Part shown: piece by piece, positions 17,940 to 63,970 of the stretch
How positions within the stretch are numbered: position 1 is the stretch's first letter
How the letters are laid out: the number at the start of each line of letters is the position of its first letter
Virus record (IMG/VR): IMGVR_UViG_3300008262_003210
Origin: a virus
Taxonomy: Duplodnaviria > Caudoviricetes
DNA length: 64,000 nucleotides
Strand: one strand, 5' to 3'
Position numbers and translations under genes: made by a program
The notes under the pieces: generated by a model
Databases searched by the model: none
Told to the model about the DNA's origin: nothing
The model's input: the letters and a program-made list of their open reading frames with translations, nothing else

Positions 17940-17940
17940 A

Positions 17941-20110: not shown

Positions 20111-20140
20111 GTTACTCCAATCTAATGTATATAATAATTA

Positions 20141-24423: not shown

Positions 24424-24631
24424 AGTTAGATGACCAAAATCCTTGCGGGCAGCTACCGGCTTTTAAAGCGCACTTAGCACTTACTGGACTGCCTACAATT
24501 TTACATATACCCTCGTTTTTGTTTTCATATGCATAACAATTTTTACAAATTTCCATTCTTTGTTCGTATATTTGCATAGAAACGCGAAGCACTCTTTCGT
24601 CTAAGTGCATCTGTCTTGGTTTTTTAATCAT
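24413..24631 (-). CDS. Small Cys-rich protein (DUF6171-like, R..IC..C...C...C...CP.G.W)
   Basis: 72 aa with 5 Cys; coupled by overlaps to both neighbours. Confidence 0.55.
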   Translation of the reverse strand: MIKKPRQMHLDERVLRVSMQIYEQRMEICKNCYAYENKNEGICKIVGSPVSAKCALKAGSCPQGFWSSNYDY

Positions 24632-25343: not shown

Positions 25344-25349
25344 CGCGCT

Positions 25350-25937: not shown

Positions 25938-25938
25938 A

Positions 25939-27758: not shown

Positions 27759-28342
27759 TTAAATCTTGGCCCTACGACCCAGGAAACTAAACTTTTTCTT
27801 AAACCTTCTGTTACCGGAGTTACTTCGTGAATTACATAACTGGGGAATACAATTAAAGTTCCTTTAGTTTTAGGAGCAATTACTGGATCCTTTGTTGAAA
27901 ATCTATAAAATAATAATTCACCTCCTTGGTAGTCGGCTTCATCTGAAAGTTGAATAGTTAAACTTAATTTTCTAAAAAGATTATATTTGTAACCGTCGTC
28001 GCTGTGTGGTTTGTAATGACCTAGTGTATCTGAATGGTATTCAGCGTACTGTAAGTCTTCCATTTCTGTTAAATCGTATCTGTAAAATCTGTCATTCAAC
28101 TGTTGAATAATATTTGAAAGTTTCATGTAAAGATCTTTGGATTCTTCGTTAGTTTCAATCCAAGAAATTTTATTCTTACGAATTTCTTCGTTAGAAATTC
28201 CGGCTTCTAAAGTGCCATCGCCCTGCATAGTACTTTTGCTAGCCAGCATTTCTACTAATTTTATTTCATCATCGGTAAGAACGCCTGGTGCGTATGCAAA
28301 TGGTTCATTTGCGTAATTTAAATCTTTTATAAACCAGCTCAT
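27755..28342 (-). CDS. Fe(II)/2OG oxygenase (PKHD/prolyl-hydroxylase-like, HxD)
   Basis: HYKPHSD...RKLSLTIQLS...YQGGEL...GTLIVFPSYVIHEVTPVT.G.RKSLVSW. Confidence 0.85.
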   Translation of the reverse strand: MSWFIKDLNYANEPFAYAPGVLTDDEIKLVEMLASKSTMQGDGTLEAGISNEEIRKNKISWIETNEESKDLYMKLSNIIQQLNDRFYRYDLTEMEDLQYAEYHSDTLGHYKPHSDDGYKYNLFRKLSLTIQLSDEADYQGGELLFYRFSTKDPVIAPKTKGTLIVFPSYVIHEVTPVTEGLRKSLVSWVVGPRFK

Positions 28343-28911
28343 TGTTTCAATCCTGTATCAAAACTAACCACATATCGTTGATTAGAAAAATTATTTTCAG
28401 TGTAATGCATCAGCCAACTAGGAAACAATATTAAATCTCCCAGTGCTACTTTAAAATTAAAGGCTTGTCTGTTGTATTCAGTTAATCTTGTTGAAATTTC
28501 ATTAACCTTAAAAGGTTGACATGGGTTATCAAATATTAACTCGCCCGAATCGTCATCTGCTTTGCTATAAAAAACACCACTTATTAGACTAAGTTCGTGC
28601 CTATGAGGTTTAATTGTGCTGCCATCTCTGTATATGTTACACCAACTATAAGTTATTTTACAAGGATGCAATCCTAATTGATCAGCATAAAGATCTACAC
28701 ATTCCTGTATAGCATTTTTAAGATCTAAATTAGAATCTAAAAAAGAAGATGAGTTGCTTCTTAAACCTTTACCATTAAACAACTTATGATAAGTGTTAAC
28801 AAGTTCAGTTTCTTCAATTTTTTTACTAATTTCTTCTAAGTTAGCTTTGCCTAACAAATTATAAACATTTATAACGGTTGGAAATAACCAACATTCTGCT
28901 TTTTTAATCAT
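28339..28911 (-). CDS. Fe(II)/2OG oxygenase-like (HxH)
   Basis: SWCNIY...PHRH...SGVFY...GDLILFPSWLMH...RYVVSFD. Confidence 0.85.
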   Translation of the reverse strand: MIKKAECWLFPTVINVYNLLGKANLEEISKKIEETELVNTYHKLFNGKGLRSNSSSFLDSNLDLKNAIQECVDLYADQLGLHPCKITYSWCNIYRDGSTIKPHRHELSLISGVFYSKADDDSGELIFDNPCQPFKVNEISTRLTEYNRQAFNFKVALGDLILFPSWLMHYTENNFSNQRYVVSFDTGLKQ

Positions 28912-28912
28912 T

Positions 28913-29362
28913 TTAAATTAAGTCCACTAAATCAAATATTGTTTGTAATTTTGTTCTAATAGTTTTATTACTAAAACTATTTCTCAAACCTTGATGCAAT
29001 GGTTTAGGAGCGTAATCAACATTTACCCATGCGTAGCCGGTGTGTTCTTGGCTGAGAATGGGAATAAATTCGTTGTCTATTACACAGAGATATGTGTGAA
29101 AATTAAAAACTTTGTCGTTTGATACAAACGTCTCTAATGGTATAGTTTTGATTATGTGGGGAGTTGTGCCTACTTCTTCAGATACTTCTCTTTGAAGTCC
29201 TTGCCAGGGATTTTCATGTTGTAGGTTAGTGCCACCTACTAATCCCCAAGTACCAGCATGTTTGCCTTCGGCTTTTTGTAACAGTAAAAATCTTCGTGTA
29301 GATTTAGCGTAGAATAATGCTCCGCTACATACAATCTTATCTGTTACAGTTCTAATCTCCAT
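28913..29362 (-). CDS. Nudix hydrolase
   Basis: Complete Nudix box G-x5-E-x7-REVSEEVG. Confidence 0.85.
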   Translation of the reverse strand: MEIRTVTDKIVCSGALFYAKSTRRFLLLQKAEGKHAGTWGLVGGTNLQHENPWQGLQREVSEEVGTTPHIIKTIPLETFVSNDKVFNFHTYLCVIDNEFIPILSQEHTGYAWVNVDYAPKPLHQGLRNSFSNKTIRTKLQTIFDLVDLI

Positions 29363-30804
29363 TCGCCCGCCCTATACTCGCCTTCAAACGATTTAGCCCA
29401 AAATACACCATTCCAGACGTACTGGACCCCAGTATATATATTCGTTTGATATATGAGTGTGTCGGATTCTTGAGTAGAATTAAAAATTATATACCAATTT
29501 GTATTATCAAATTCTATAATATCGTTTGCATAGGCAACTAGATTCCCCCAAGCACTAGCTGGTTGAGTGTTATTTTCGTTGCCTATATCTTCTATAATTA
29601 AGTATCGAGTACCTGCTACTGGTGACTCTGGATTATAGGTCAGGGGATTAATAATTGCATCAAATGTTCCTGGGCTTGCTGGCCTTAAGTTATTTGTTCC
29701 GTAGTCGGCATCAGTGTCCAAATTACCGTCGCTATCAATTCCTGTATTCGTATTAAGTGTATCTGCGTCCCAGGATACTTGTAGGATTGTTGGATCTAGT
29801 GGACTTATTGCCACTGTGCCTATAACTTCTGTTCCGTTTGATTGAGTTAAGTACAATGAACTTGATCCTGCTGTGTACTTTCCAGGATATTTGTCAAAAA
29901 GTGCTTGCCATTCAATTGGCGTTCCTTGACGAACAGGTATATCCAGTGTTGGTTCTCTAGGCACGCTGCTTTCTGATTTATTCAATAAAATTACTTGATT
30001 GTTATAAACTTGAACATTGTAATCTGTAATAGTAGCAGATTCGCGAGTTAACAACTGCCCCATAGCAATATCTGGACCTGCTAATGGCTGACCTAATCCT
30101 TCTATGTAAGAATTATTGTTTACATTTGCACCGTCATATAAACTTGTAATAATTTTAGTAATAACTCCAAGATGCTTAACTTTAACTGGAGGACTAATCC
30201 ATATAGGAGTTTCTAACTGTAGTGTTGCAATATCAATAGGACTATCAGTACCTACTGGAACACTACGACTAGACCATGTTGTCTGTGTTAGATTTAAAAT
30301 TGAAAGGCTTGTCCAGTCAACATAATTGTCGGTTGTCTGTAGTTCAAGGCTTGGATTAAACAATACTAGTATTTGTTCTAGTAACTGTAATTTTTGTTCA
30401 GTATTTGCAGTCCATATATCACACTTCATAGTTAACTTAAAAGGCGTTGGCATCAAACGCTCAACAGTATAGTTGCGTCCTTGTCCAGAAGTGTACACTG
30501 GATTATTTGGATCAGCGTCATTTATTTCGCGTTCTCTTACATGAACTTTGCCTACAAAAGTAGAGTCACTCATTCTAGTCATGTCTAAATCTAAACCAGA
30601 AATATAAACAGCAATTCTTGGCACACTACTAATTTTGTTTTCACTGTTTTGACGAACAATACTTGCCGCCTGCCTATCAGCATCTCCGTACATAACCGGA
30701 ACACGAACAAGAGTTCCATCTCCGTATTTGACTGTAAAATTACTCAACACACGAATAGTTTGAGTTAAGTACCTTCTTATTTGTCCGTCATAAAAAAATT
30801 GCAT
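29344..30804 (-). CDS. gp15: Tail terminator / sheath stabiliser (T4 gp15-like) with C-terminal extension
   Basis: FFYDGQIRRY...F......VPV.YG...R; QKLQLLEQILVLFNP. Confidence 0.75.
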   Translation of the reverse strand: MQFFYDGQIRRYLTQTIRVLSNFTVKYGDGTLVRVPVMYGDADRQAASIVRQNSENKISSVPRIAVYISGLDLDMTRMSDSTFVGKVHVREREINDADPNNPVYTSGQGRNYTVERLMPTPFKLTMKCDIWTANTEQKLQLLEQILVLFNPSLELQTTDNYVDWTSLSILNLTQTTWSSRSVPVGTDSPIDIATLQLETPIWISPPVKVKHLGVITKIITSLYDGANVNNNSYIEGLGQPLAGPDIAMGQLLTRESATITDYNVQVYNNQVILLNKSESSVPREPTLDIPVRQGTPIEWQALFDKYPGKYTAGSSSLYLTQSNGTEVIGTVAISPLDPTILQVSWDADTLNTNTGIDSDGNLDTDADYGTNNLRPASPGTFDAIINPLTYNPESPVAGTRYLIIEDIGNENNTQPASAWGNLVAYANDIIEFDNTNWYIIFNSTQESDTLIYQTNIYTGVQYVWNGVFWAKSFEGEYRAGEWRLEL

Positions 30805-32216
30805 TATAAATCTGCCTTTGGTCTAAGAGCTTTAGATAAACTCTGTCGTTGTGCTTCTCTATTCTTGCAAAGACTAATCTTCCAAGTGCCTGTATGAGGA
30901 ATAATTTGTTGCTCATCGCTAATTACAGGAAGTTCAATGCGAATTTTACCAGCGTTATTAGTTATCATGCTAGTATAATCTTCAATAGTAAAACCTATTT
31001 CCGTTGTTTCTAATTTTAATACCAGATATACTGCACCTGTTAAATCTGAATAGTTAATATTGGTGTCAAATTCAATATCGCCTTCGTCTAACTTCACCCA
31101 ATCAATTGCAGTTGCTTGATTGTAGATATAAGAAGTATTATTAATAAATCCAGTTTTAAGAGTTTGACGAGTATCGTTGTTGGTCATATTCATACGCACA
31201 GCATCTTCTACTTTAATCCAACGTGTGCCGTCAAAGCGGAATAATCTGTTGGGCATAAAATCTGTACGTAGGAAAAAATCATCTGGACCTGGTGCTTCGG
31301 GAAACTGTATGCCGTGGCCAAAATCATATCCGTTTTGCGGGAACCCATCTCCAACTAGATAACCAGTGTAACCAGTTCTGACAGGACGAGCATTGCTTTC
31401 TAGTGCAGTAATACTTGTTATAGATGCATCTAGTTCAGTTGTATCTGAAGTATTAAGTACAGTTTTTCCTTTTTCATCAACTGCCAAAGTATAAAACTGT
31501 CTTGTTTCATATCCACTCTTAGGAGCATCTGCTTCTGCTTGTTGAACAACAGCATCGTTAATCACAAGTTCTTGTGTTCTCATACTTAACAAATCACGCA
31601 GAGTTTTATCGCTTGGATTACCGTACGCATCAGTTGCTGGCTTATCTAAAATATCTGCGAATTGTTGTGCATCTAGTAATTTCTTGCAACGTAATCTATA
31701 CAAGTGAGGATACCATGTTGCACTAAATCCTTCGCTAGCACGGCCAACATCTTCAATTACGTAATATCTTGGCAGAGCAATGTCGTAATCATTTAATGCA
31801 AATTGGTCTTTTAAATGAGGTAATTCAATAACGTCACCTGATAAGGGTTTACGTCCAACATATTCAATAAAATTATTAATGTGGACCGTCATAAAAATTA
31901 TATCATTGTCAATGAATAATCCAAATTGACTTAGGTTAAAATCAATATTTGCAACATTATAGAGCCCGCGAATTTTGTAAATTTCTTCGCTGTATTTTCT
32001 GTCTCTATTTTCTAAAAATAACAAATCTTGAATGTTTGTTTCTTTGACAGCATCGTACACTGGTTGATCTGCTGTACCTTCGTCTTTTAGTTTAGGACCT
32101 AGATACTTGTGCAAATAAACATCTGTACCGCCAACCTGAAACATCTCAGAAATTGAGCGATCTATAAATTTGTAGTCTTGCCCTCGTTCGGGCTTATATA
32201 AGGATAATCGTGGCAT
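30804..32216 (-). CDS. gp14: Neck protein (T4 gp14-like head closure)
   Basis: Probable start MPRLSLY at 32216, 5 nt after GATAAATA; G.DVY.HKY, FGLFI, GRKP..GDVIELP motifs; adjacent to gp13 and gp15. Confidence 0.65.
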   Translation of the reverse strand: MPRLSLYKPERGQDYKFIDRSISEMFQVGGTDVYLHKYLGPKLKDEGTADQPVYDAVKETNIQDLLFLENRDRKYSEEIYKIRGLYNVANIDFNLSQFGLFIDNDIIFMTVHINNFIEYVGRKPLSGDVIELPHLKDQFALNDYDIALPRYYVIEDVGRASEGFSATWYPHLYRLRCKKLLDAQQFADILDKPATDAYGNPSDKTLRDLLSMRTQELVINDAVVQQAEADAPKSGYETRQFYTLAVDEKGKTVLNTSDTTELDASITSITALESNARPVRTGYTGYLVGDGFPQNGYDFGHGIQFPEAPGPDDFFLRTDFMPNRLFRFDGTRWIKVEDAVRMNMTNNDTRQTLKTGFINNTSYIYNQATAIDWVKLDEGDIEFDTNINYSDLTGAVYLVLKLETTEIGFTIEDYTSMITNNAGKIRIELPVISDEQQIIPHTGTWKISLCKNREAQRQSLSKALRPKADL

Positions 32217-32221
32217 AATGA

Positions 32222-32241
32222 TATTTATCGCTAGATAAATA
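32222..32241. promoter_or_regulatory. Back-to-back T4-type late promoters (GATAAATA on each strand)
   Basis: Minus copy at 32229-32222 serves gp14; plus copy at 32234-32241 serves gp13. T4 late consensus is TATAAATA. Confidence 0.65.
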
Positions 32242-32258
32242 TAGTAGGAGAACTTAAA

Positions 32259-33053
32259 ATGGCAGATATATACCCGCAAGATCCTGGGCTTTCTGATAGC
32301 ACAATAGAGCGAAACAAAGCATTTGACTATGTTCGCAATATGCTAGGCGACGGCATGGTCGAAGTAGAATTAGATCCAAAACACTACGAAACAGCATTAG
32401 ATCGTGCGCTAACTAAATTTCGTCAGCGTAGTAGTAATGCAGTGGAAGAAAGTTACATGTTTTTAGAACTAATTCAAGACGTGAACGAATACAGACTGCC
32501 AGATGAAGTTATCGAAGTTCAGAGTATTTTTAGACGTGCAGTGGGTTCTCGTAGCGGTTTGGGTGCAGGCGGAACATTGTTCGAGCCGTTCAACTTGGCG
32601 TACACAAACAGCTACTTGTTAACTGGTAGTATGATGGGCGGACTAGCAACATATGAAATGTTTGCTGGATATCAAAAATTAGTAGGACGTATGTTTGGTG
32701 CTTACATAGAATTTAAATGGCGTCAAACTAATCATATACTAACCATACTGCAACGTCCTTTTGCAGCAGGTGAACAAGTACTGTTAAGAACTCATAACTT
32801 CCGTCCAGATTTCATTTTACTACAAGACATCTATGCAAAGCAGTGGTTGTACGACTACACATTAGCAGTATGTAAACTAATGCTAGGTGAAGCTCGTAGT
32901 AAATTTGGAAATATTGCCGGACCCGGTGGATCAGGAATACAACTTAACGGTACTGCACTTATGACCGCAGGCCAACAAGAAATCGAAAAACTTGAAAAAG
33001 AAATCAACGATATGGTTCCGGGCGGTACACCGCTAACATTTGTAATTGGTTAA
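32259..33053 (+). CDS. gp13: Neck protein (T4 gp13-like)
   Basis: LG...VEVELD..HYE.A...AL; W..DYTLA..K..LGEAR.KF..I.GP.G..I.LNG; AGGAG RBS. Confidence 0.8.
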   Translation: MADIYPQDPGLSDSTIERNKAFDYVRNMLGDGMVEVELDPKHYETALDRALTKFRQRSSNAVEESYMFLELIQDVNEYRLPDEVIEVQSIFRRAVGSRSGLGAGGTLFEPFNLAYTNSYLLTGSMMGGLATYEMFAGYQKLVGRMFGAYIEFKWRQTNHILTILQRPFAAGEQVLLRTHNFRPDFILLQDIYAKQWLYDYTLAVCKLMLGEARSKFGNIAGPGGSGIQLNGTALMTAGQQEIEKLEKEINDMVPGGTPLTFVIG

Positions 33054-50237: not shown

Positions 50238-50692
50238 TGGGTTGGTACGCTAAAATTTCAAAAGACATCTCGCATATTCCGGATGCAGTAGAGTACTACA
50301 AGACCGAATTAGATGCTGCAAAAATTGAATGCCGTATAACGGGAAATATTGAAAGAGCAGCAGCAGGCTTGCCTGGTATTGTGGAACAGCGGTTTAGTCA
50401 GCTTCAAGAAATCGAAGCAATTTTAGAATACCTTAACATTGAACTTCGAAGACTTAAAAGCAGTCATTTTCGAAAATATCTTGAAAACTATCAACGTGCT
50501 CTAAGTAGTCGTGATTGTGAAAAATTTGTTGAAGGCGAGGCAGACGTAGTTGATTTTGAAAAAATTATCAACGAATTTGCCTTACTTCGTAACAAGTGGT
50601 TAGGCATTACTAAAGGCTTAGATCAAAAACAATGGCAAATTACCAATATTGTTAAACTTCGTGTTGCAGGGATGGAAGACGCTACCTTATGA
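50237..50692 (+). CDS. uvsY: Recombination mediator UvsY-like
   Basis: Helical; KWLGITKGLDQKQWQITNIVKLRVAGMED; lies next to uvsX. Confidence 0.75.
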   Translation: MGWYAKISKDISHIPDAVEYYKTELDAAKIECRITGNIERAAAGLPGIVEQRFSQLQEIEAILEYLNIELRRLKSSHFRKYLENYQRALSSRDCEKFVEGEADVVDFEKIINEFALLRNKWLGITKGLDQKQWQITNIVKLRVAGMEDATL

Positions 50693-51432
50693 AGATAGTC
50701 CTTGTCACCGGAGGCTTCGACCCATTGCATAGCGGACATATACGATATTTTAAAGAAGCAAAAGCATTGGGAGATATGCTAATTGTTGGATTGAACAGCG
50801 ATGATTGGCTAGAACGTAAAAAAGGCCGTGCATTTATGCCTTGGAACGAAAGGCTTTGCATTATTAACAATCTATCTATGGTTGATGAGGTCTACACATT
50901 TGATGATGAAGACAACTCTGCCCGTCATTTTATAAAACAAGTAAGAGCTCATTATCCAGAAAGTCAATTGATTTTTGCCAATGGCGGTGATCGCACACAA
51001 GCAAACATTCCAGAAATGGATTGCACCGATAAAAACTTATATTTTGCATTTGGCGTTGGCGGCGTTGACAAAATGAATTCCAGTAGATGGATTTTGCAAG
51101 AATGGAAAGCTCCTAAGACAGAAAGACCATGGGGCTACTACCGTGTCTTGCACGAGATACAAGGAACCAAGGTAAAAGAACTTACAGTGATGCCTGGTAA
51201 AAGTTTAACCATGCAGAGACACCAACATCGAGCAGAGCACTGGCATGTATCAGAAGGTCGATGCGTAGTAAATTTTGGTGATGGTGAGCAAGAACGTACC
51301 TTACATCAGTTCCAACATATTCCTGTTGGTCATTGGCATCAACTTACTAATCCGTTTAACGAACCTTGCAGGATTGTAGAAATACAATACGGCGATCGCT
51401 GTGATGAAAGTGACATCGAACGACAAAACTAA
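50689..51432 (+). CDS. Cytidylyltransferase (HxGH) fused to a mannose-6-P-isomerase-type cupin
   Basis: TGGFDPLHSGH, VGLNSD, FANGGDR; C-domain RPWGYY.VL, Q.H.HRAEHW.V..G, EIQYG....E.DIER. Confidence 0.85.
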   Translation: MKIVLVTGGFDPLHSGHIRYFKEAKALGDMLIVGLNSDDWLERKKGRAFMPWNERLCIINNLSMVDEVYTFDDEDNSARHFIKQVRAHYPESQLIFANGGDRTQANIPEMDCTDKNLYFAFGVGGVDKMNSSRWILQEWKAPKTERPWGYYRVLHEIQGTKVKELTVMPGKSLTMQRHQHRAEHWHVSEGRCVVNFGDGEQERTLHQFQHIPVGHWHQLTNPFNEPCRIVEIQYGDRCDESDIERQN

Positions 51433-51529: not shown

Positions 51530-52708
51530 ATGACACAAATAGATAAAATTTTAATTAAAATTTTGAATTTACCTGATAATGATTTAATGTTAGTGCCTAG
51601 ACGCGAATTGAAGATTCTAAAAAATCTTGGAAAATTAGTTTCGTCACCGCATTTTATAACAGAAAATCAAGGCAAATTATTAATGAAAATTTTAAACGAA
51701 AATTTGAGAAATTTTAACGGAATTTCAGACGAAATTTCCGAGTCCTTACTTACACCCTCTTGGTCAAGAATCTTTAGGCCGGTTGATAAAACTAAAAAAA
51801 TATACTTGTCGACTGACAATTCTACAATAGTTATGGAGTTTGCATACTCTAGTGTAATACGCAAGGTTTTACAGTCAATCTGGCGAGACCTTGGTAACAT
51901 ATCACAAGAAACTTCTGGTAAAATTTATAACATCGAACTCACTGAAAAAAATATTGTAAAATTAGTTGACACCTTTAAACCTCTTGAATTTGAAATTGAC
52001 GAGAAAATTGAAAATTTTTACAAAATTATAAAATCTTGGTCAGAAACTGAAATAAAAAATAAATTCTTGCTCAGCAACTTTGATCATTCTAATTTTCAAA
52101 AATTGATTACTAGTGACCTTGGTATCGATACTCCTATCTCAGATGACACCATTGCTGACCGAAGTGTGCGATACCAGTATTTTTTAGAAAATCCCAAAAA
52201 AACACCAGAAAATTTGACCGAAATTTTGGCCTATAGGAAAAATACTAAAGTTTGGATCAATAAAAATTCCTACTCGTTAGAAGAGATTTTAAGTTCATTG
52301 AAACAAATAAAAAGACTACCTGTGCTTGTTATATTCGATTGTAATGACCATAAAAAATGCTATGAAGAATTGGTAGATCTTCACAAGAGTTTAGAAAAAA
52401 CTGAAATTTTTGAAAATATTGGAATTTACTTTCGCCTTGACAATGATGAAGGTGGATCGATGTTCAACAAATTTATAGCCGAAAACAAATACAATGCTCA
52501 GTTAGATGAAACAACAACTATTGTTGGAGTACAAAATGGAAAAATACCTAAATTTTTCCTAAAAAGCCCTTGGAAGCCAATGAGTGTAATAAGCATTGGT
52601 TCTTCACTTAAACAAACAAAAACTGCGGTATATGCAAATTGTTGCGACCTAATAATTTCATACACAGAGCAAGAACCTATTATTGAGAACAAAGTACTAT
52701 GGGAGTAA
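51530..52708 (+). CDS. Hypothetical protein (392 aa) upstream of UvsW
   Basis: Long ORF overlapping the uvsW start; no motif recognised. Confidence 0.7.
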   Translation: MTQIDKILIKILNLPDNDLMLVPRRELKILKNLGKLVSSPHFITENQGKLLMKILNENLRNFNGISDEISESLLTPSWSRIFRPVDKTKKIYLSTDNSTIVMEFAYSSVIRKVLQSIWRDLGNISQETSGKIYNIELTEKNIVKLVDTFKPLEFEIDEKIENFYKIIKSWSETEIKNKFLLSNFDHSNFQKLITSDLGIDTPISDDTIADRSVRYQYFLENPKKTPENLTEILAYRKNTKVWINKNSYSLEEILSSLKQIKRLPVLVIFDCNDHKKCYEELVDLHKSLEKTEIFENIGIYFRLDNDEGGSMFNKFIAENKYNAQLDETTTIVGVQNGKIPKFFLKSPWKPMSVISIGSSLKQTKTAVYANCCDLIISYTEQEPIIENKVLWE

Positions 52709-54168
52709 AATTAGTCATCCGAGACGAAGTCAACATTAAATTTGAGGGACTTCCGCTAGACGCTCGTAAAAAACTAGTATCAACCTTTAAATACGTCGAC
52801 CCAACAGCTCGATATCGACCTGCCTATAAATTAGGACGTTGGGACGGTACCATAAGTCTATTTGGTCTCGGCGGCAATGGGTATCTTAATCAATTGGAAA
52901 AATGCTTTGAGGTATTAAATTCAATTGGCGTTGAAATAGACGAGTTAGAAGATTTAAGAACTCCTGTAAAAATTAATTTCACTCCCGTTACAAATTCTTA
53001 TTGGGCGGACATGGGAAAAGTGTGGCCGGAAGGTCACAGGTTTGCAGGTAATCCTATCACCTTAAGAGACGACCAAGTCGAAATCATTAATAGATTTTTT
53101 ACAAATACACAAGCATTACAAGAAGTAGCTACAGGCGCAGGAAAAACTATTATGACTGCTACTCTTGCACATTGTTCTGAAAAATACGGACGTACTGTGA
53201 CCATTGTTCCAAACAAAGATCTTGTCACACAAACTGAAGAAGATTTCATCAATGTTGGATTAGATGTAGGTGTTTACTTTGGTGACAGAAAGATGATTGG
53301 CCACACGCATACTATTTGTACTTGGCAAAGTCTCAATGTACTAGATAAGAAAAGTAAAAACTGGGATTTAGAAGAAGCACTTTCGTTAGCTGAGTTCTTA
53401 CACGATGTTAAAACCGTTATTGTAGACGAAGTACATATGGCAAAAGCCGAAGTATTGAAGAACCTGTTGACTCATAACTTCTCAAGTACTCCGATTAGAT
53501 GGGGGTTAACTGGTACAGTACCTAAAGATGAATTTGAAGCTGAACCAATTTTTGCTAGCATTGGTCCAGTTATAGGCGGTATAAAGGCATACGAATTGCA
53601 AGAGATGGGCATACTATCTAATTGCCATGTTAATGTTGTTCAAATGATAGATTTGCCTGAATTTAAAAGCTATGCGGAAGAATTAAAATATCTTGTTACT
53701 AATAAAGAACGAATAACCTATATAAGCAAACTAATTCAAGGTATCTCTGAATCAGGTAACACACTTATCTTAGTTAATAGGATTGATACAGGAAAATTTT
53801 TAACAGAATTATTGCCAGAGGCGGCATTCATTTCAGGCGAAGTAAAAGGCAAAGAACGTAAAGAGGAATATAAAGAACATGCAACAACTGATAACAAGAT
53901 TACTGTGGCGACTTACGGCGTGGCCGCTGTTGGTATTAATATCCCAAGGATTTTTAATCTGGTTCTTCTTGAACCCGGAAAGAGCTTTGTCCGCGTTATA
54001 CAAAGCATTGGGCGAGGCATTAGAAAAGCAGAAGACAAAGACTTCGTACAAATCTGGGACCTTACTAGCACCTGTAAGTACGCCAAACGTCACCTCACGC
54101 AGAGGAAGAAATTTTATAAGGAAGCCAAATATCCGTTTACTCTTGAAAAAACGGATTGGCAAAAATAA
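52699..54168 (+). CDS. uvsW: SF2 DNA helicase UvsW
   Basis: ATGAGKT, IVDEVH, GLTGT, ATYGVAAVGINIP, QSIGRGIR. Confidence 0.9.
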   Translation: MGVKLVIRDEVNIKFEGLPLDARKKLVSTFKYVDPTARYRPAYKLGRWDGTISLFGLGGNGYLNQLEKCFEVLNSIGVEIDELEDLRTPVKINFTPVTNSYWADMGKVWPEGHRFAGNPITLRDDQVEIINRFFTNTQALQEVATGAGKTIMTATLAHCSEKYGRTVTIVPNKDLVTQTEEDFINVGLDVGVYFGDRKMIGHTHTICTWQSLNVLDKKSKNWDLEEALSLAEFLHDVKTVIVDEVHMAKAEVLKNLLTHNFSSTPIRWGLTGTVPKDEFEAEPIFASIGPVIGGIKAYELQEMGILSNCHVNVVQMIDLPEFKSYAEELKYLVTNKERITYISKLIQGISESGNTLILVNRIDTGKFLTELLPEAAFISGEVKGKERKEEYKEHATTDNKITVATYGVAAVGINIPRIFNLVLLEPGKSFVRVIQSIGRGIRKAEDKDFVQIWDLTSTCKYAKRHLTQRKKFYKEAKYPFTLEKTDWQK

Positions 54169-54818: not shown

Positions 54819-55098
54819 ACCTGGTGCAACATACATATACGAACGTAACAAAGATACCGTATATGCTAGAGAATTTGGTGCTGATCCTAATACTAGACAA
54901 GTAGTTGGATGGAAATACGATAAGGATCATCCAAACTTCGATCCTAGGACTGGCGATGGTAGGCCGCTACACGATCACCTAATGGAAGACAAACTTTGGG
55001 GCGAAATTCGGAGAGAAGCACGTACCAATTCTACTTTACAAAAGGCCTTAGATCGTGCTATAATGATATACAGACTCAGCAAGGATAAACCACTATGA
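54805..55098 (+). CDS. Hypothetical protein (97 aa)
   Basis: AGGAG RBS; coupled to the next gene. Confidence 0.65.
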   Translation: MGSLKPGATYIYERNKDTVYAREFGADPNTRQVVGWKYDKDHPNFDPRTGDGRPLHDHLMEDKLWGEIRREARTNSTLQKALDRAIMIYRLSKDKPL

Positions 55099-55721
55099 CT
55101 TTAAAAGTTGCATATTTTGCGCCAACTGTAATGGCGTTAGATGAAATTCCTCCAGGCACATTTAGCCAAATTTATAATTTATCCGATACTCTTCATAGCC
55201 ACCCCGAACTAAATGATTCAGGAAATCCTACCATAAGTATTCGCGGAGGCCAACAAATTCAAGTTTATCCTAATGAATTAGAGCTTGATGTTTCGTGGCT
55301 TGTAAAATATCTTGAAGAAATTTGTGTTGGATATATGGAACTTGTATCTGCACAAAGCGGAACAGAGGAACTTAAATATTGCAAACCTATTGTAAACAGT
55401 ATTTGGACTATACGACAAGGTCCAGGACAATATCAAGAAATGCATAGTCATCCGGCTGGGAATTTAAGTGGAAACATCTATATACAGACTCCGGATTTAG
55501 AATTAAATAGTTTGCCAAGCGACGGTCAGGTGTTATTTAGAATGTCGCAGACTAAAGACATTACAAAGTTTATTATGAACGATACTTGGAAATTTACACC
55601 ACAACAAGGCATGGTAGTACTTTTTCCTAGTCATATACCACACACCGTATATCCGTGGCGCGGAACTGGATATCGAACAGTTATGGCATTTGATGCTGTG
55701 TTGAGGCCTAAGGATGAGTGA
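55095..55721 (+). CDS. Fe(II)/2OG oxygenase-like (HxH), outside the main island
   Basis: SIW.IRQ...EMHSH...SG.IYI...G.VVLFPSHIPHTVYP...R.VMAFDA. Confidence 0.8.
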   Translation: MTLKVAYFAPTVMALDEIPPGTFSQIYNLSDTLHSHPELNDSGNPTISIRGGQQIQVYPNELELDVSWLVKYLEEICVGYMELVSAQSGTEELKYCKPIVNSIWTIRQGPGQYQEMHSHPAGNLSGNIYIQTPDLELNSLPSDGQVLFRMSQTKDITKFIMNDTWKFTPQQGMVVLFPSHIPHTVYPWRGTGYRTVMAFDAVLRPKDE

Positions 55722-56193
55722 AAAAATTGAATTAAAAGAGAAAATTTCTGCGGTTGACCAGAATGTGCGTGAACTATGGGATGCCATGGATCCTGAACAA
55801 CAAAAAAGCCTTAAATCAGAATTTTTTATTCTTAATCGTTACATAAGCAATGCAAAATCATCTAATACAGAAATTCAACAACATTTTGTTTTAACTGTTA
55901 ACGAATATTTTAATAAGCACTGGAACATTCTTCAAAAGCATCCAAAACTTCTTTGGTTGTTATTGTGTATGTGCAGCTATGACGGTAAAAATCAATTTTA
56001 TCATGAATGGATTGGGCATAAAAAGAAAACAGGTACTAATAGTAAAAAGGTAAAATTTTTAACAGAAATATACCCTAATAAAAAAATTGATGAAATTGAA
56101 CTACTGTCGTCTATTGCAACTGACAAAGAGATAAAAGACCTTGCTCGAAAATATGGCATGGATGAACCAACTATTGCAAAAAAGTTTAAATGA
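55714..56193 (+). CDS. Possible clamp-loader small subunit (T4 gp62-like)
   Basis: FILNRYIS...W.G.KKK...L.EIYP..K..E.ELL pattern; weak recognition. Confidence 0.4.
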   Translation: MSEKIELKEKISAVDQNVRELWDAMDPEQQKSLKSEFFILNRYISNAKSSNTEIQQHFVLTVNEYFNKHWNILQKHPKLLWLLLCMCSYDGKNQFYHEWIGHKKKTGTNSKKVKFLTEIYPNKKIDEIELLSSIATDKEIKDLARKYGMDEPTIAKKFK

Positions 56194-56882
56194 TGAATCT
56201 TGTTAGCCAGCCTTATGTTTGTCAGTACTGTAATCATAAGTTTACAAAAGAAAAAACTTTAGCTGTGCATGTATGCGAACAGAAACGCAGGGCGTTGGCC
56301 AAACATGAAAGACATGTTGTCTTAGGCTTTGATACCTATAACAAATTTTATAAACTGACTCAAAATTCAAAAGGCGACAAGACGTATGATGAGTTTGCAC
56401 GTAGTCCTTACTATAATGCTTTTATAAAATTTGGAAGTTTTGTTTCGAATGTAAATCCTTTATATTTTGACAAGTTCATTGACTATGTAATTAAATCTGG
56501 AGTTAAGCTCGACCATTGGTGTCGAGATGAGTTATACGACAAATATGTTATAGATTTAATTAAAACAGAACCGGTTGAAGTAGCACTAGAGCGCAGTATT
56601 AAACATATGATGGAGTGGGCTGATGCAAACAAAAGCGTCTGGAATCATTATTTTTTATATGTTAGTTTAAGTCGAGCTACGTATGATATCAAGGACGGAA
56701 AGGTCAGCCCGTGGTTGTTGTTAAACAGCACGAACGGCAAAGAATTACTTAAGAAACTGAGTGATGAACAGCTAGCTGCAATAAGTAATGTTATAGACTT
56801 GCAATTTTGGATCAATAAATTTAAAAAGTTGCCTGCTGACACAGAACTTGTACGCCAAGTCGTTAAGGAATCTAACATATGA
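56190..56882 (+). CDS. Protein with an N-terminal Zn finger (230 aa)
   Basis: YVCQYCNHKFTKEKTLAVHVCE. Confidence 0.65.
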   Translation: MMNLVSQPYVCQYCNHKFTKEKTLAVHVCEQKRRALAKHERHVVLGFDTYNKFYKLTQNSKGDKTYDEFARSPYYNAFIKFGSFVSNVNPLYFDKFIDYVIKSGVKLDHWCRDELYDKYVIDLIKTEPVEVALERSIKHMMEWADANKSVWNHYFLYVSLSRATYDIKDGKVSPWLLLNSTNGKELLKKLSDEQLAAISNVIDLQFWINKFKKLPADTELVRQVVKESNI

Positions 56883-57076
56883 CAAATCCAGCTAATCATG
56901 TAAGTGGTAACCCAGATGCAATGCAACTTGACCTCCAAGTGATTGTTTCTGAAGAAGACAATTCAGTGTATGTAAAATTTACAGGTTTTGAAACAATAGA
57001 AGAAGCTGACAAATACGCAGATCATTTAACAGAACATTTGCCACTGTTACTGTTTGAAAGCGAGATAAAACATTGA
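56879..57076 (+). CDS. Hypothetical protein (65 aa)
   Basis: ATGA-coupled to the upstream gene. Confidence 0.55.
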   Translation: MTNPANHVSGNPDAMQLDLQVIVSEEDNSVYVKFTGFETIEEADKYADHLTEHLPLLLFESEIKH

Positions 57077-57261
57077 GAAAATTAGTAGACGGAACTAAGG
57101 CTAAAGAATTGAAAGAACCTGTTACACTCACAGTCTATACAAAATGTCCAGAAAAATGGATGTTAGTTGACAAAGAAACTGGAGAAGTGTATATTGGATA
57201 TGCGACTAAAGGAAAGAATAGTTGGAAGAAAATTGACCAATGGAGTGGTAAGGATGCCTGA
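57073..57261 (+). CDS. Hypothetical protein (62 aa, TTG start)
   Basis: TTGA-coupled to the upstream stop; KCPEKW.LVD.ETG.VY.G. Confidence 0.55.
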   Translation: MRKLVDGTKAKELKEPVTLTVYTKCPEKWMLVDKETGEVYIGYATKGKNSWKKIDQWSGKDA

Positions 57262-57832
57262 TATCGATATTGACTTTGCAGATAGAACACATGCTCTTGA
57301 CAAGTTTAAACATGTTGTTGCGGCTATTGAAGAACATGGCACTTTTAAAAAGCACAATACTGGTATCTATTGTACTTCTGTGCCATACAATCCAATAACG
57401 GGACTAAGTACAATAGATTATAAAACAGCAGAAGAGCGTGGTTATTTTAAAATAGACTTTTTAAATGTCGGTGTCTATGAGGGTGTAAAAGATAGAGCAC
57501 ATCTTAAACAATTGATGGAGACAGAACCATTATGGGATCTACTAGAACAAGACGACTTTACCCAACTCCTGTTCCATGTGAATGGGCATGGGTCTATTCT
57601 GAGACAAAGCAAACCAAGATCTATAGAGCAATTGGCAGCAGTACTAGCAATGATCAGACCCGCGAAACGTTATCTGATTGGGAAAGATTGGACTACGGTG
57701 ATGACGGAAGTGTGGACGAAGCCAGAGAATGATGAATACTACTTTAAGAAGGCACATGCTATTGCTTATGCACATGTAGTAGTGGTACAGATGAATTTAA
57801 TTTGTGAAAATATAAGTTACGGGTACAGTTAA
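57254..57832 (+). CDS. Miniature family-C polymerase (DnaE palm-like), 192 aa
   Basis: MPDIDIDF, KHNTG, KIDFL, LAMIRP and YFKKAHAIAYA match DnaE motifs in order; the start at 57254 follows AAGG. Confidence 0.75.
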   Translation: MPDIDIDFADRTHALDKFKHVVAAIEEHGTFKKHNTGIYCTSVPYNPITGLSTIDYKTAEERGYFKIDFLNVGVYEGVKDRAHLKQLMETEPLWDLLEQDDFTQLLFHVNGHGSILRQSKPRSIEQLAAVLAMIRPAKRYLIGKDWTTVMTEVWTKPENDEYYFKKAHAIAYAHVVVVQMNLICENISYGYS

Positions 57833-58203
57833 CGAGTTTTACGCACTAACTGTACGCTTTTACGTTTAACACGTTTTAATGTTAAATTCATTAAATTCAC
57901 AACTGGTCCTAATATTACCCTAACATCTTTGCTATTGAATGTTTTAATAGCGTAGGCAAAGGGTTGTATTTGATCTTTACAAATAATACTAATAGGAAAT
58001 TGGCGGTTGCTTTCCCACCACCAAGTTTCTCCTATTTCTAGGAAAACAGTCCGTTCTTCTAAGCTCTTTATAGAGTTAAGGTCGTAAAAGCTGGTTACGA
58101 ATTGATCTTGATTTATTATGATGCCAACGTACTCTTCTTCACCGTAGTTTAGCACACTAATAAAGGGCAAATTTTGTTCTATGTTATCTCTTAATTTTGC
58201 CAT
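57829..58203 (-). CDS. Hypothetical protein (124 aa)
   Basis: Only long ORF in the interval; convergent 4-nt overlap with mini-DnaE. Confidence 0.65.
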   Translation of the reverse strand: MAKLRDNIEQNLPFISVLNYGEEEYVGIIINQDQFVTSFYDLNSIKSLEERTVFLEIGETWWWESNRQFPISIICKDQIQPFAYAIKTFNSKDVRVILGPVVNLMNLTLKRVKRKSVQLVRKTR

Positions 58204-59327: not shown

Positions 59328-60305
59328 ATGAGCCTCATAGCCGATACACTACTACAATTCTTACCTGGCAAGCGTAAACAAACTCCAAGCGGTTGGATCA
59401 GTTTTAACGCACCTTGTTGTCAAGACAAAAGACAACGTGGCGGCTTCATTATTAACGGTGGAGATGCTGTTAGTTATCATTGTTTCAATTGCGGATTCAA
59501 AGCAAGTTGGCAACCTGGTAGAACAATAAGTCAAAAAATGAACAAGCTCATGCGAGATTTGAACATGCCCGATGATGTTATTAGTCAACTACGACTTGAA
59601 GCACTACGTTTAAATGAAAACTCAAACGCAACTGTAAGACAAGTTGTTCCTACATTTGAGGCTAGAGCATTACCGCCAGATACACGACCAATTAATGACT
59701 GGCTGGATGAAATGCCAGAAAAGTTAGTGCCGGTATTAGAATATGTTGCTGAACGTAAAATGTATCTAGACTATTATAATTTTCACTGGACTCCTAAGAT
59801 TGGTTTTAGTAACAGACTAATCGTGCCGTTCTATAAAGATGGTGTTTGTGTAGGATATACTGCCCGAGCAGTTAATGATGCTAAACCTAAATATATAAGT
59901 GAGCAACAACCTGGCTATGTGTTTAATTTAGATGCACAACACAATGATAGACAGTTCGTGATTGTTTGTGAAGGGCCATTTGATGCGATAAGTATTGATG
60001 GGTGTGCGTTACTAGGTGCTGAAATTAAAGACAGTCAAAACTGGTTACTTAAACAGTTAGGCAAAGAAATCATTCTAGTACCCGATAAGGATCATGAAGG
60101 TCCTAGAACAGTAGAACAAGCAATTGAGTACGGATGGTCAGTTAGTATGCCTGATTGGCCAGATGGAGTTAAAGATGTCAATGATGCTTATATAAAATTA
60201 GGAAGATTAGCAACTCTTTGGTTGATTACTGCGGCTAAAGAGTCAAACAGTCTTAAAATACAACTACGAGCTAAGAAATGGTTTAGAGATGAAGAAACTA
60301 ATTGA
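59328..60305 (+). CDS. DNA primase (Zn finger + TOPRIM)
   Basis: FNAPCC...YHCFNCGF; VCEGPFDA; PDKD.EG; KD.ND. Confidence 0.85.
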   Translation: MSLIADTLLQFLPGKRKQTPSGWISFNAPCCQDKRQRGGFIINGGDAVSYHCFNCGFKASWQPGRTISQKMNKLMRDLNMPDDVISQLRLEALRLNENSNATVRQVVPTFEARALPPDTRPINDWLDEMPEKLVPVLEYVAERKMYLDYYNFHWTPKIGFSNRLIVPFYKDGVCVGYTARAVNDAKPKYISEQQPGYVFNLDAQHNDRQFVIVCEGPFDAISIDGCALLGAEIKDSQNWLLKQLGKEIILVPDKDHEGPRTVEQAIEYGWSVSMPDWPDGVKDVNDAYIKLGRLATLWLITAAKESNSLKIQLRAKKWFRDEETN

Positions 60306-60390
60306 ATTTTTTAAACAATGGCGCTATTGGCGTCAACGCCGACAACGTTTAAAAGAGTTGGCGGAAAAAGATCCATACATTTACAAATGA
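60289..60390 (+). CDS. Small basic peptide (33 aa; not in the ORF track)
   Basis: MKKLIEFFKQWRYWRQRRQRLKELAEKDPYIYK; its TGA overlaps the carbamoyltransferase ATG (ATGA). Confidence 0.6.
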   Translation: MKKLIEFFKQWRYWRQRRQRLKELAEKDPYIYK

Positions 60391-61331
60391 GCTACTGGGG
60401 AATAAATGCGCTGAATCATGGATCTAGTTTGGCAGTATTTGCCGAATACGACCTCAAGTCTTGGCAAGTCAGCAAAGAAAACACCTTGCCTAGCGAAGTT
60501 ATTAAACAGGCGCTCAATCAAGGCGGCCCTGACAAAATATTTTGGTATGAAAGACCCTGGGTTAAAAAAGCAAGACAGCTATACGCTGGACAATATCGTA
60601 CAGCATTTAATTTAAACACGTTACCTGGTAGATATCTTAAACAAACTCGGTTGGATTATGCCGATGTTTACTATTCGCCCCATCATGCCAGCCATGCAGC
60701 TGCTGGATATTATACTAGTCCATTTAATCATGCGGCTATTGTAGTATTAGATGCTATTGGTGAATTTGAATGTGCTACTATATGGGAAGGAAAGTGTGGT
60801 GAGCTACGCAAGGTTTGGTCTAAAAGTTATCCACATAGTTTAGGATTATTTTATAGTGCCTTTACTAAACTTTGCAGTTTAGAACCAATTAAACAAGAAC
60901 ATTTACTACAAGAAATGGCATTGAACGGTGATCCTACTAGATATTATTTTGATGTTAAGGAGTACATGGGAACATTGATACATGCTCACAAAAATCTACA
61001 CAGAGGAGTGTTAGATTGGCCACATGATATCAATAACATCAAAGATCAATGTGACATTGCAGCCGCCGTCCAAGAAGTTTTTACCGAGCAAGTTGATAGC
61101 ATAATGCGTGTGGCTAAAGAATTAACCGGTGCTGACTGTTTAGTATATATGGGCGGCTGTGCTATGAATAGTGCAGCTAATAAAATTGTAGTTGAACCAA
61201 AATTTAAGTACACATGGAGTTTGCCACAGCCTGGAGACCCTAGTAGTAGTATTGGTGCTGTACTTTATCACACACAATGGCGTGTAGATTGGCGTTATGA
61301 TATAGCCAAGCATATTGCTATTAACACTTAA
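60387..61331 (+). CDS. Carbamoyltransferase (NodU/CmcH/TobZ family), N-terminal Kae1-like domain only
   Basis: HHASHAA, DAIGE, SLGLFYSAFT, GGCAMN, GDPSSSIGA; probable start MSYWGIN at 60387. Confidence 0.8.
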   Translation: MSYWGINALNHGSSLAVFAEYDLKSWQVSKENTLPSEVIKQALNQGGPDKIFWYERPWVKKARQLYAGQYRTAFNLNTLPGRYLKQTRLDYADVYYSPHHASHAAAGYYTSPFNHAAIVVLDAIGEFECATIWEGKCGELRKVWSKSYPHSLGLFYSAFTKLCSLEPIKQEHLLQEMALNGDPTRYYFDVKEYMGTLIHAHKNLHRGVLDWPHDINNIKDQCDIAAAVQEVFTEQVDSIMRVAKELTGADCLVYMGGCAMNSAANKIVVEPKFKYTWSLPQPGDPSSSIGAVLYHTQWRVDWRYDIAKHIAINT

Positions 61332-61349: not shown

Positions 61350-62783
61350 ATGAAACAAAATACTGATTACGGTTTTGAAATACAAAAAGTTTATTTAGAA
61401 ATGATGTTGGCAGATGCAGCAACATTTAGTCGTTGCCAAGCAATTTTTGATCACACACTATTTGATCGTAAACTGCAAAATTCTGCTGATTTTATTAACA
61501 ATTATGTCAAAGAACATAGTGTAGTTCCAACGGAAACCATTGTCAATGCAGCTACTGGTTCTGATTTTAAAGTCCCGCATGATTTGAGAGAAGAACATTT
61601 TGATTGGTTACTTACCGACTTTGAAACTTTTATTAGACACAAAGGTCTTGAAAAGGCAATTCTCGAAAGTGCCGACATGCTGGAAAAAGGTGAGTATGGT
61701 AGTGTAGAAGAAAAAATTAAAAAGGCTGTGCAAATTGGTCTACAAAAAGACATGGGTACAGATTACTTTTTAGATCCTCGTTCAAGATTAATGCGTATTA
61801 AAGATAAAAACGGACAGATTAGTACTGGATGGAAAGCCATTGATGATAAACTGTTTGGTGGCATGAATCGAGGAGAGTTGAATATCTTTGCAGGTGGATC
61901 AGGTGCAGGTAAGTCGTTATTCTTGGCTAACTTAGGTTTGAACTGGGCACTACAAGGATTGAATGTAATATATCTAAGTCTTGAACTTAGTGAAGAATTA
62001 GTATCCATGCGTATGGATGCTATGCTAACTGGCATGCCAACTAAAGATGTGTTTAAGAACATAGACGATGTTGAAATGAAGGTTAGGATGATTGGTAAAA
62101 AATCAGGGCAGTTTCAAGTCAAGTATATGCCGTCTGGGAAGACCGTAAATGACATACGTTCGTATATGAAAGAGTATGAAATCAAAATGGAACGTAAAGT
62201 AGATGTACTATTAGTAGACTACTTGGACTTGCTGATGCCTATTGGCAAGAAAATCTCTGCAGAGAACTTGTTTGTCAAAGACAAATATGTGTCTGAAGAA
62301 CTACGTAATCTGTCCATGGAGAAACAATGCATTTGCGTTACAGCGGCACAGTTGAATCGTGGAGCAGTTGAAGAAGTAGAGTTTGACCACAGTCATATCT
62401 CGGGAGGTTTAAGTAAGATTCAGACAGCAGATAATGTGTTTGGTATCTTTACCTCTAGAGCTATGCGTGAACGCGGACGCTATCAAATCCAATTAATGAA
62501 AACACGTAGTTCAAGTGGTGTTGGGCAGAAAATTGATTTAGAGTTTAATATAGATAGTTTGCGTATTACTGACCTAGCTGATGAAGATAGTTACGGTTCC
62601 GGTGCCCCTAGCGCAGGTTCAAGTTTACTCAATCAAATAAAACAAAGGCAAACAGTTGTTGATCCTACTACAGGAGAAGTTGATCCTAACAGTTTGGGCC
62701 AAGCACCAAAAGTTAAAGCCAATGTTGAAAGCACAAAATTAAGAGAACTTTTGAATAATTTACCAAGTGACGATGTAGTGTAA
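61350..62783 (+). CDS. gp41: Replicative DNA helicase (DnaB/T4 gp41-like)
   Basis: GGSGAGKS, YLSLELSE, LVDYLDL, TAAQLNR, SK..TAD, QLMKTR. Confidence 0.9.
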   Translation: MKQNTDYGFEIQKVYLEMMLADAATFSRCQAIFDHTLFDRKLQNSADFINNYVKEHSVVPTETIVNAATGSDFKVPHDLREEHFDWLLTDFETFIRHKGLEKAILESADMLEKGEYGSVEEKIKKAVQIGLQKDMGTDYFLDPRSRLMRIKDKNGQISTGWKAIDDKLFGGMNRGELNIFAGGSGAGKSLFLANLGLNWALQGLNVIYLSLELSEELVSMRMDAMLTGMPTKDVFKNIDDVEMKVRMIGKKSGQFQVKYMPSGKTVNDIRSYMKEYEIKMERKVDVLLVDYLDLLMPIGKKISAENLFVKDKYVSEELRNLSMEKQCICVTAAQLNRGAVEEVEFDHSHISGGLSKIQTADNVFGIFTSRAMRERGRYQIQLMKTRSSSGVGQKIDLEFNIDSLRITDLADEDSYGSGAPSAGSSLLNQIKQRQTVVDPTTGEVDPNSLGQAPKVKANVESTKLRELLNNLPSDDVV

Positions 62784-63295: not shown

Positions 63296-63321
63296 AAAAG
63301 CCGCACTAAGCGGCTTTTTTT
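63294..63321. terminator. Bidirectional terminator
   Basis: AAAAAAGCCGC-ACTAA-GCGGCTTTTTT between convergent genes. Confidence 0.85.
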
Positions 63322-63970
63322 ATTTGTAGTTTCTTGGAATGTTTGGATCGTAGTTACTACCAGCTCGTTTGTCGCCTTTGAGCATTTGATTGCGTAGCAT
63401 ACGACTGAACGTAGCAATTTGTTCTGGACTATGTGACTTGGGATCTAGCTGATAACCAATAGTACCATTAGCAAGACCTGCCAATACTTTTTTCACATCC
63501 TGCTCAGTATAAGGACCGTCTTTGGCAATAACGCCTTTGAGTCTTGCACGATTCACTGCCATGTTAATGCCCTGAGCATAGGTACTGGTGTTGCCTGTTG
63601 CTGCCGGAATGTCCGACGGTTGTGTATTTACTTTACCTGTAGTATAGATACCACACCATGCAAATGTTTCACATCCTGCTTTGACAGCGGCCGCAAATGC
63701 TTGATTAAAATTGGACATATATTTGATACGAGCTTGATCTTCAATAGTACATTTTTGTGGTGCACCGTCCATTGGCTCAGACCTTGCTGGTGCACCGTCC
63801 ATTGGCTCAGATCTTGCTGGTTCGGCTGGCAACGGATCTAATGCTGTACCTGTAGCTGAATTAGAATTAACAGGAGTTGCAACAGCAGGCTCAGCGGCAC
63901 TTTGAGTATCTGTTCGTTGTAAAGGAACCATTTTAGCATTTACATAGCCGCCGTAACCAGTACGTACCAT
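63320..63970 (-). CDS. Pro/Ala-rich protein with the F..A.A.A...G...F.W motif (216 aa)
   Basis: GGGGAG RBS; FNQAFAAAVKAGCETFAWCGIY. Confidence 0.65.
   Translation of the reverse strand: MVRTGYGGYVNAKMVPLQRTDTQSAAEPAVATPVNSNSATGTALDPLPAEPARSEPMDGAPARSEPMDGAPQKCTIEDQARIKYMSNFNQAFAAAVKAGCETFAWCGIYTTGKVNTQPSDIPAATGNTSTYAQGINMAVNRARLKGVIAKDGPYTEQDVKKVLAGLANGTIGYQLDPKSHSPEQIATFSRMLRNQMLKGDKRAGSNYDPNIPRNYK
63758..63820 (-). repeat. 30-nt in-frame tandem duplication (PARSEPMDGA x2)
   Basis: tggtgcaccgtccattggctcaga(c/t)cttgc twice, with one mismatch. Confidence 0.9.

Follow-up and report, generated by a model that had tools for sequence, protein, structure and literature searches.

Gene Content of the Locus

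The window, i.e., the whole stretch of 64,000 nucleotides considered here (IMG/VR record IMGVR_UViG_3300008262_003210), encodes a tail sheath protein, the large terminase, a gp32-type SSB, UvsX, UvsY, UvsW, a primase and DnaB. Judged by this gene content, it is a piece of a T4-like jumbo myovirus. The public runs that contain the stretch are DNA metagenomes from lakes and other fresh waters; no RNA run is among them. In related loci, synteny revealed a conserved order of the replication module, namely UvsW, a zinc-finger protein, the gene under study, primase and DnaB. In the window, the module is arranged as follows:

52699-54168, plus strand: UvsW-type helicase, which opens the replication module (Pfam ResIII/Helicase_C, PHROG 16)
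56190-56882, plus strand: C2H2 zinc-finger protein of 230 aa (PHROG 11058, E 3e-61)
56879-57261, plus strand: two small variable ORFs of 65 aa and 62 aa, between the zinc-finger gene and the gene under study
57254-57832, plus strand: putative C-terminal unit of a split minimal Pol III alpha, 192 aa, comprising the Mg-binding part of the palm and reduced fingers (hereafter the C-unit)
57829-58203, minus strand: convergent gene of 124 aa (PHROG 11637, E 1e-31)
59328-60305, plus strand: DnaG-type primase with zinc ribbon and Toprim (Pfam Toprim_2, PHROG 47)
61350-62783, plus strand: DnaB-like replicative helicase (PHROG 19, E 1e-68)

The frame at 57254-57832 on the plus strand is open and is translated into 192 aa followed by a stop codon. 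Its ATG and the stop codon of the upstream 62-aa ORF overlap by 8 nt (ATGCCTGA), and a GGAG lies 8 nt upstream of the ATG; owing to this overlap and to the GGAG, the C-unit gene is coupled to the 62-aa ORF. A previous sequence-only reading of this DNA had already described the frame as intact and coupled, which agrees with these data. The ATG at the same motif starts the gene in 78 of the 80 related IMG/VR loci, the products being 186-195 aa long. An alternative TTG start at position 57167, which would give 221 aa, was rejected because the homologues begin at the ATG.

The zinc-finger gene is located upstream on the same strand in 79 of the 80 loci, often abutting the start of the C-unit gene, and its product is also encoded in 93 records of cultured phages that belong to the same clade. 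This protein consists of an N-terminal C2H2 finger and an all-helical body (pLDDT of the model 89.7). No convincing match was found for it in the PDB, where the best Foldseek hit had E 1.4 and the best VIA-wide hit had Z 4.5; the similarity to the T4 gp59 helicase loader was weak (Z 3.9, rmsd 12). In the Atlas, the zinc-finger protein retrieved unnamed viral clusters alone, and the convergent 124-aa gene retrieved nothing. The zinc-finger protein is a possible extra subunit or loader.

The 65-aa and 62-aa ORFs are present in 23 and 21 of the 80 related loci, respectively. The latter corresponds to the C-terminal 53 of the 559 positions of PHROG 4098, a family of unknown function. The convergent 124-aa gene occurs in 77 of the 80 loci and in 90 cultured phage records. 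Its stop codon overlaps that of the C-unit gene (TTAA), and the same tail-to-tail overlap is found in Sinorhizobium phage Phosso, Pseudomonas phage PAC2 and Escherichia phage Turkey3.

Several further features of the window were observed. Metabolic-type genes are located within the replication module on the plus strand. These are a fusion of a cytidylyltransferase-like domain with a cupin (mannose-6-phosphate isomerase C-terminal) at 50689-51432, a 2OG-Fe(II) oxygenase at 55095-55721 and a protein with a carbamoyltransferase N-terminal domain at 60318-61331, between primase and DnaB; the last two are each found in 51-54 of the 80 relatives. A giant ORF (1-10683, plus strand), with at least 3560 aa encoded, extends beyond the 5' end of the window. 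A low-GC block (31-35%) of paralogous genes occupies 15460-32279 on the minus strand. It includes three paralogues of about 500 aa that share 25-28% identity (E down to 1e-49), together with five or more interrelated ORFs of about 190-240 aa (E 1e-8 to 1e-22). The product of 63320-63970 (minus strand) contains a perfect tandem duplication of ARSEPMDGAP in its Pro/Ala-rich N-terminal region and has no family match.

Relationship of the C-Unit to C-Family Polymerases

The C-unit matches PHROG 11778 ("DNA polymerase") with E 2.1e-66, residues 3-186 covering positions 8-194 of the 197-position profile. In Pfam, the Pol III finger domain alone was matched by the 192-aa ORF, and this match was below the threshold. 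The profile built from 85 diverse representatives of the family matched exclusively Pol III alpha chains in the PDB (E about 6e-6). An AlphaFold2 model calculated from the alignment of the same 85 representatives reached a pLDDT of 96.6, and the first 17 Foldseek matches of this model were all DnaE or PolC. In VIA-align, model residues 1-190 were superposed on residues 400-784 of E. coli DnaE (Z 9.1, 185 residues aligned, rmsd 3.8), on residues 461-841 of the Taq enzyme (Z 10.1) and on residues 971-1296 of Geobacillus PolC (Z 9.5), the best unrelated chain having Z 2.9. The family match is far above chance level, as follows from the PHROG E value of 2e-66, the profile E value of 6e-6 and Z scores of 9-10 vs. 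2.9.

The conserved motifs of the C-unit are distributed as follows:

57254-57277, plus strand: MPDIDIDF, residues 1-8, matching PDIDIDF of DnaE
57449-57463, plus strand: KIDFL, residues 66-70, aligned with KFDFL of E. coli
57656-57667, plus strand: RPAK, residues 135-138, the start of the fingers, matching FRPG (638-641) of E. coli
57740-57772, plus strand: YFKKAHAIAYA helix, residues 163-173, within the alignment of residues 152-179 to E. coli 740-768

An additional motif, KKHNTG, is found at residues 32-37. D3, D5 and D7 of the C-unit correspond to D401, D403 and D405 of E. coli DnaE, D3 and D5 being catalytic aspartates. Profile alignment with hhalign equated K66 with K553 and D68 with D555, the third catalytic aspartate; P136 corresponds to P640. 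H168 is aligned with H760, the proposed steric gate against ribonucleotides. In the E. coli enzyme, this role of H760 is known from modelling (Vaisman et al. 2021, PMC8485763). All motifs named in the sequence-only reading were thus found in their places and in DnaE order. The span of about 365 residues that this reading had given for E. coli is consistent with the superposition on residues 400-784.

Profile alignment, with which hhalign agrees, places C-unit residues 55-140 on E. coli 539-641 and residues 152-179 on 740-768. The C-unit therefore represents DnaE residues 400-784 with about 200 residues removed. The Pol-beta-like palm with three aspartates is retained and superposes on the DnaE palm; the aspartate triad (D401/D403/D555), K553, the RP pair (639-640) and the FNKSH760 helix follow in the same order in both proteins. 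In place of E. coli residues 407-540 (the remaining palm and the thumb), the C-unit has about 45 residues, and in place of 643-739 about 13. Everything past about residue 784, i.e., the rest of the fingers, the clamp-binding motif, HhH, OB and the tau-binding region, has no counterpart in the C-unit. The domain borders of E. coli DnaE used here are presumably those of Lamers et al. 2006. Unlike E. coli DnaE, which has 1160 aa and a PHP domain, the 192-aa ORF contains no PHP domain according to Pfam. PolC of Firmicutes shares the C-family catalytic fold with the C-unit; it is, however, a single chain of about 1400 aa that contains PHP, OB and an exonuclease insertion, none of which is present in the C-unit. 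The absence of PHP, HhH and OB had been recognized from the sequence, and this part of the description stands; the thumb, also listed as absent, is mostly but not wholly lost. The triphosphate-binding RGS loop is not located on the C-unit chain, the first residue of which corresponds to E. coli residue 399.

Across the 85 representatives, whose identity falls to about 30%, D3, D5, K66, D68 and P136 never vary, and D7, H34, G37, R135, K138, K165 and H168 are kept in at least 90%. Pairwise comparison of the C-unit with its 15 closest relatives gave dN/dS of 0.07-0.18. More than 8000 database clusters from metagenomes match the C-unit, nearly all of them 192 aa long, and many of these homologues are labelled DNA polymerase III alpha subunit by JGI. 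The identical protein is also encoded on a contig of 0.2-1 Mb. Conservation on this scale indicates that the gene is clearly functional, with its active site under selection. Loss of the catalytic aspartates among homologues or decay of the gene, either of which would have spoken against the sequence-only reading, was not seen.

Partner Unit and Site of the Split

With PF07733 as the profile, a single additional gene was detected in Phosso, in PAC2 and in Turkey3, encoding 169-177 aa and located 30-220 kb from the C-unit gene. Equivalents of 168-170 aa were found in all three large IMG/VR relatives (G001, G002 and G003), the C-units of which are 77-84% identical to that of the window. In this product (the N-unit), residues 98-167 correspond to E. 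coli DnaE 323-392 without gaps, so that in these phages this palm segment of DnaE is encoded on a separate polypeptide. The GRGSS sequence of the N-unit is invariant and corresponds to R362-G363-S364 of E. coli, the nucleotide-binding RGS motif. The N-unit ends with EFL(R/K/N), equivalent to ERFL of E. coli, which stands six residues before the MPDFDVDF that is mirrored by the start of the C-unit. As aligned, the split (E. coli 392/399) separates the nucleotide-binding loop from the metal-binding strand and thus falls within the Pol-beta-like fold.

In abundance and conservation, the N-unit equals the C-unit, with more than 8000 metagenome clusters for each half, and both units show strong purifying selection or strict conservation. 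When a fused query was searched against the 96 cultured phage records that carry a C-unit homologue, it matched 188 places, about two per record. Joined halves were found in none of these 96 records and in none of the 80 IMG/VR loci. A tblastn search did not find the N-unit inside the 64-kb window, nor was it found in four fragmentary close relatives, whose records are just 21-30% complete; with such partial sequences, these two negative results carry no information on its presence. The phage of the window presumably possesses an N-unit as well, as do relatives with C-units 83-84% identical to its own.

The neighbourhood of the N-unit gene is also conserved: it is followed by a small hypothetical gene and then by a GroES-like co-chaperonin. 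In cultured phages, a gene for an AAA+ clamp-loader-like ATPase is located downstream of the N-unit. In Turkey3, the C-unit lies near a gene annotated as the clamp-loader small subunit. Both halves thus adjoin clamp-loader genes.

A C-family polymerase encoded by two distant genes is likewise known from cyanobacteria with split dnaE. Those halves reportedly carry intein pieces and are spliced to a full-length DnaE, as Wu, Hu and Liu are said to have described in 1998. The split site differs in the phages, and the phage halves have no intein. A split intein was rejected, since the N-unit ends with EFL(R/K/N) and the C-unit starts with MPDIDIDF with no extra residues between them. There is no room for intein segments at the junction, and therefore any association of the two units must be non-covalent.

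The sequence-only reading had explained the compaction by internal deletions and not by simple gene splitting. The deletions are confirmed; the denial of a split is not, as the N-terminal half of the palm forms a separate gene. On the alignments, the compaction is due to internal deletions plus a gene split. According to the same reading, complementary fragments rebuilding an ordinary DnaE elsewhere in the genome would have counted against it. A complementary fragment does exist, and yet the two units sum to about 360 aa and not to an ordinary DnaE of 1160 aa. Neither PHP (PF02811) nor the HhH domain (PF14579) was found in Phosso, PAC2, Turkey3, G001 and G002, while the controls were positive (14 of 14 control genomes in the case of PHP). 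As the relatives have no PHP and HhH and the whole enzyme has about 360 aa, the fragment rebuilds no ordinary DnaE. Of the options given in that reading, one subunit of a multi-part polymerase is the right one.

Model of the Complex and Fused Form

The complex was modelled with the N-unit of the relative G001 and the C-unit of the window. The score of this pair was 0.91 vs. 0.01 for the best of three controls; this level is reached by 58 of 80 solved complexes and by 2 of 110 mismatched pairs, these counts being rough because custom alignments were used for the modelled pair. Between runs, at least 98% of contacts coincide, and the partner pLDDT is at least 90. In the model, N-unit residues 133-142, which include the GRGSS loop, contact C-unit residues 2-9. 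The halves are thus predicted to fit together as in DnaE, which supports, without proving, their binding. Since structures of full-length DnaE have been solved, this result may reflect a memory of intramolecular packing.

A natural single chain that contains both parts (P0229, 375 aa, L097:1066-2193) was seen once, on a 2.4-kb metagenome contig. Its residues 14-180 are N-unit-like (37% identity, E 3e-26) and are followed by a linker of about 10 residues and a C-unit-like part that is 35% identical to ORF 57254-57832. No relatives of this fused form were found in IMG/VR. It could represent either the ancestral state or a secondary fusion, as far as its sequence indicates. The search for longer homologues returned a single protein, P0392 (550 aa, from a 17.5-kb ENA contig), which has RNase_T exonuclease and PHP domains and the last 33 residues of which are 91% identical to the C-terminus of ORF 57254-57832. 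It was rejected as a fused architecture and most likely arose from chimeric assembly or gene calling at the FKKAH helix, which is conserved.

Known Split Polymerases of Jumbo Phages

Homologues with 40-51% identity to ORF 57254-57832 occur in 96 records of cultured jumbo phages, which include Phosso, Atu_ph07, the PA5oct group, 121Q/Rak2-type coliphages, Klebsiella phages, XacN1-type phages and SCTP-2. Several of these homologues are annotated as "DNA polymerase III alpha" or "DnaE-like". No phage record was matched when the locus was searched by megablast, and an exact search with a 44-mer yielded nothing in IMG/VR.

Iyer et al. 2021 (Viruses 13:63, PMC7824862) described a "minimal, split DNA polymerase III alpha" in group 2.2 jumbo phages, in which the N-terminal unit binds NTP and the C-terminal unit binds Mg and the template. 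Joint action with the family B enzyme on a single strand, or a part in repair, was suggested by these authors, who also proposed the split enzyme as a picture of the ancestral C-family polymerase (PMC7824862). PF07733 is a marker gene of the corresponding cluster of marine jumbo phages (Weinheimer and Aylward 2022). The split enzyme, with its domain content, the split itself and its phyletic range, is therefore already known from the published literature and from GenBank, PHROG and JGI annotations. A literature search turned up neither biochemical nor genetic work on the two units, and the omics paper on PA5oct does not mention the polymerase.

The phage of the window is an uncultured freshwater member of group 2.2. 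Its C-unit belongs to the same family as those of Phosso, PAC2 and Turkey3, with the same length and the DxD start. The neighbourhood also coincides, with the zinc-finger gene upstream, the convergent small gene downstream and primase and DnaB nearby, as does the genome type (T4-like jumbo myovirus with UvsW/X/Y, gp32-type SSB and tail sheath). The window differs from these phages in its origin from an uncultured freshwater-lake source and in the two extra small ORFs before the C-unit. G001, G003, Phosso, PAC2 and Turkey3 each encode a family B polymerase, whereas none was found within the 64 kb of the window.

Probable Function and Alternative Explanations

The ORF is very probably the C-terminal unit of a two-piece minimal Pol III alpha of the type found in the group 2.2 jumbo myoviruses (Rak2, 121Q, PA5oct and Atu_ph07), the heterodimer being a likely DNA polymerase. 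The C-unit would supply the strands with the three metal-binding aspartates, the lysine near the third of them, the cut-down fingers and the steric-gate histidine. The N-unit of about 168 aa, encoded far from it, would supply the first half of the palm and the Arg-Gly-Ser loop for the incoming triphosphate. The two units would associate non-covalently and complete one beta-sheet and one active site. Such an enzyme of about 360 aa would most likely be a dNTP-specific, template-dependent DNA polymerase of low processivity. It might work beside the family B replicase, the clamp and the clamp loader in primer extension or in recombination-linked or repair synthesis. Having lost the thumb, most of the fingers (E. 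coli 643-739 and everything past about 784), HhH, OB and the clamp-binding region, the enzyme may not be able to hold a primer-template at all. Given the family B replicase, the replicative need for a minimal Pol III alpha is not evident either.

An alternative view is that the N- and C-units form one enzyme that copies no template. The Pol-beta-like fold is common to many nucleotidyltransferases that are not polymerases, all DNA-clamping domains are lost together with the thumb and most of the fingers, and the relatives already have a complete family B replisome. The enzyme would then be a template-independent nucleotidyltransferase acting in terminal transfer or in the modification of DNA ends or primers, or it would make a nucleotide signal in conflict with the host. 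This is unlikely, as the fold search yields C-family polymerases alone, with no other nucleotidyltransferase above Z 2.9. Moreover, the DnaE-specific elements that face the template and the dNTP, i.e., RP(A/G)K and the FKKxH helix with the steric-gate histidine, are kept, and the genes are located in replication modules and not in defence or counter-defence islands. A more specific role of the polymerase has also been considered, in which the heterodimer forms the core of a dedicated primer-extension enzyme, possibly with the zinc-finger protein as a third, DNA-holding subunit that replaces the missing thumb and HhH. Much as DnaE extends primers for PolC in Firmicutes, this enzyme would continue from the DnaG-type primase and pass the primer to the T4-type family B replicase. 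Such a dedicated role is conceivable but rather improbable.

The two remaining explanations leave out the partner or the catalysis. The sequence-only reading had given first place to a repurposed nucleotidyltransferase that acts by itself, and the 192-aa protein does have all three catalytic aspartates and folds confidently on its own in the model. Self-sufficiency is nevertheless very improbable: the Arg-Gly-Ser loop and the first half of the palm are on another gene, so the ORF cannot be a self-sufficient nucleotidyltransferase, and that gene co-occurs with the C-unit in 96 of 96 cultured records and in 3 of 3 large metagenomic genomes. The existence of the natural fused form, the equal abundance and conservation of the N-unit and the predicted interface, which buries the catalytic strand of the C-unit against the N-unit loop, all argue in the same direction, and this part of the earlier proposal is unsupported. 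The least probable explanation is that of a catalytically dead remnant of a captured dnaE, with a structural or regulatory role or in the course of decay. The extreme reduction relative to DnaE and the family B polymerase in relatives might suggest it, whereas the invariance of the catalytic residues down to about 30% identity, the dN/dS of 0.07-0.18 and the length and start codon fixed across thousands of homologues are strongly at odds with it.

Significance

The window contributes one more member of the published family of split polymerases. With about 360 aa in two chains, the heterodimer would be the smallest known version of the catalytic module of the bacterial replicase. The puzzle is that a phage with a full T4-type replisome retains a second polymerase of the bacterial type. 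If the dedicated role in primer extension were true, these abundant jumbo phages would have two-polymerase replisomes in which bacterial-type and archaeo-eukaryotic-type enzymes are combined.
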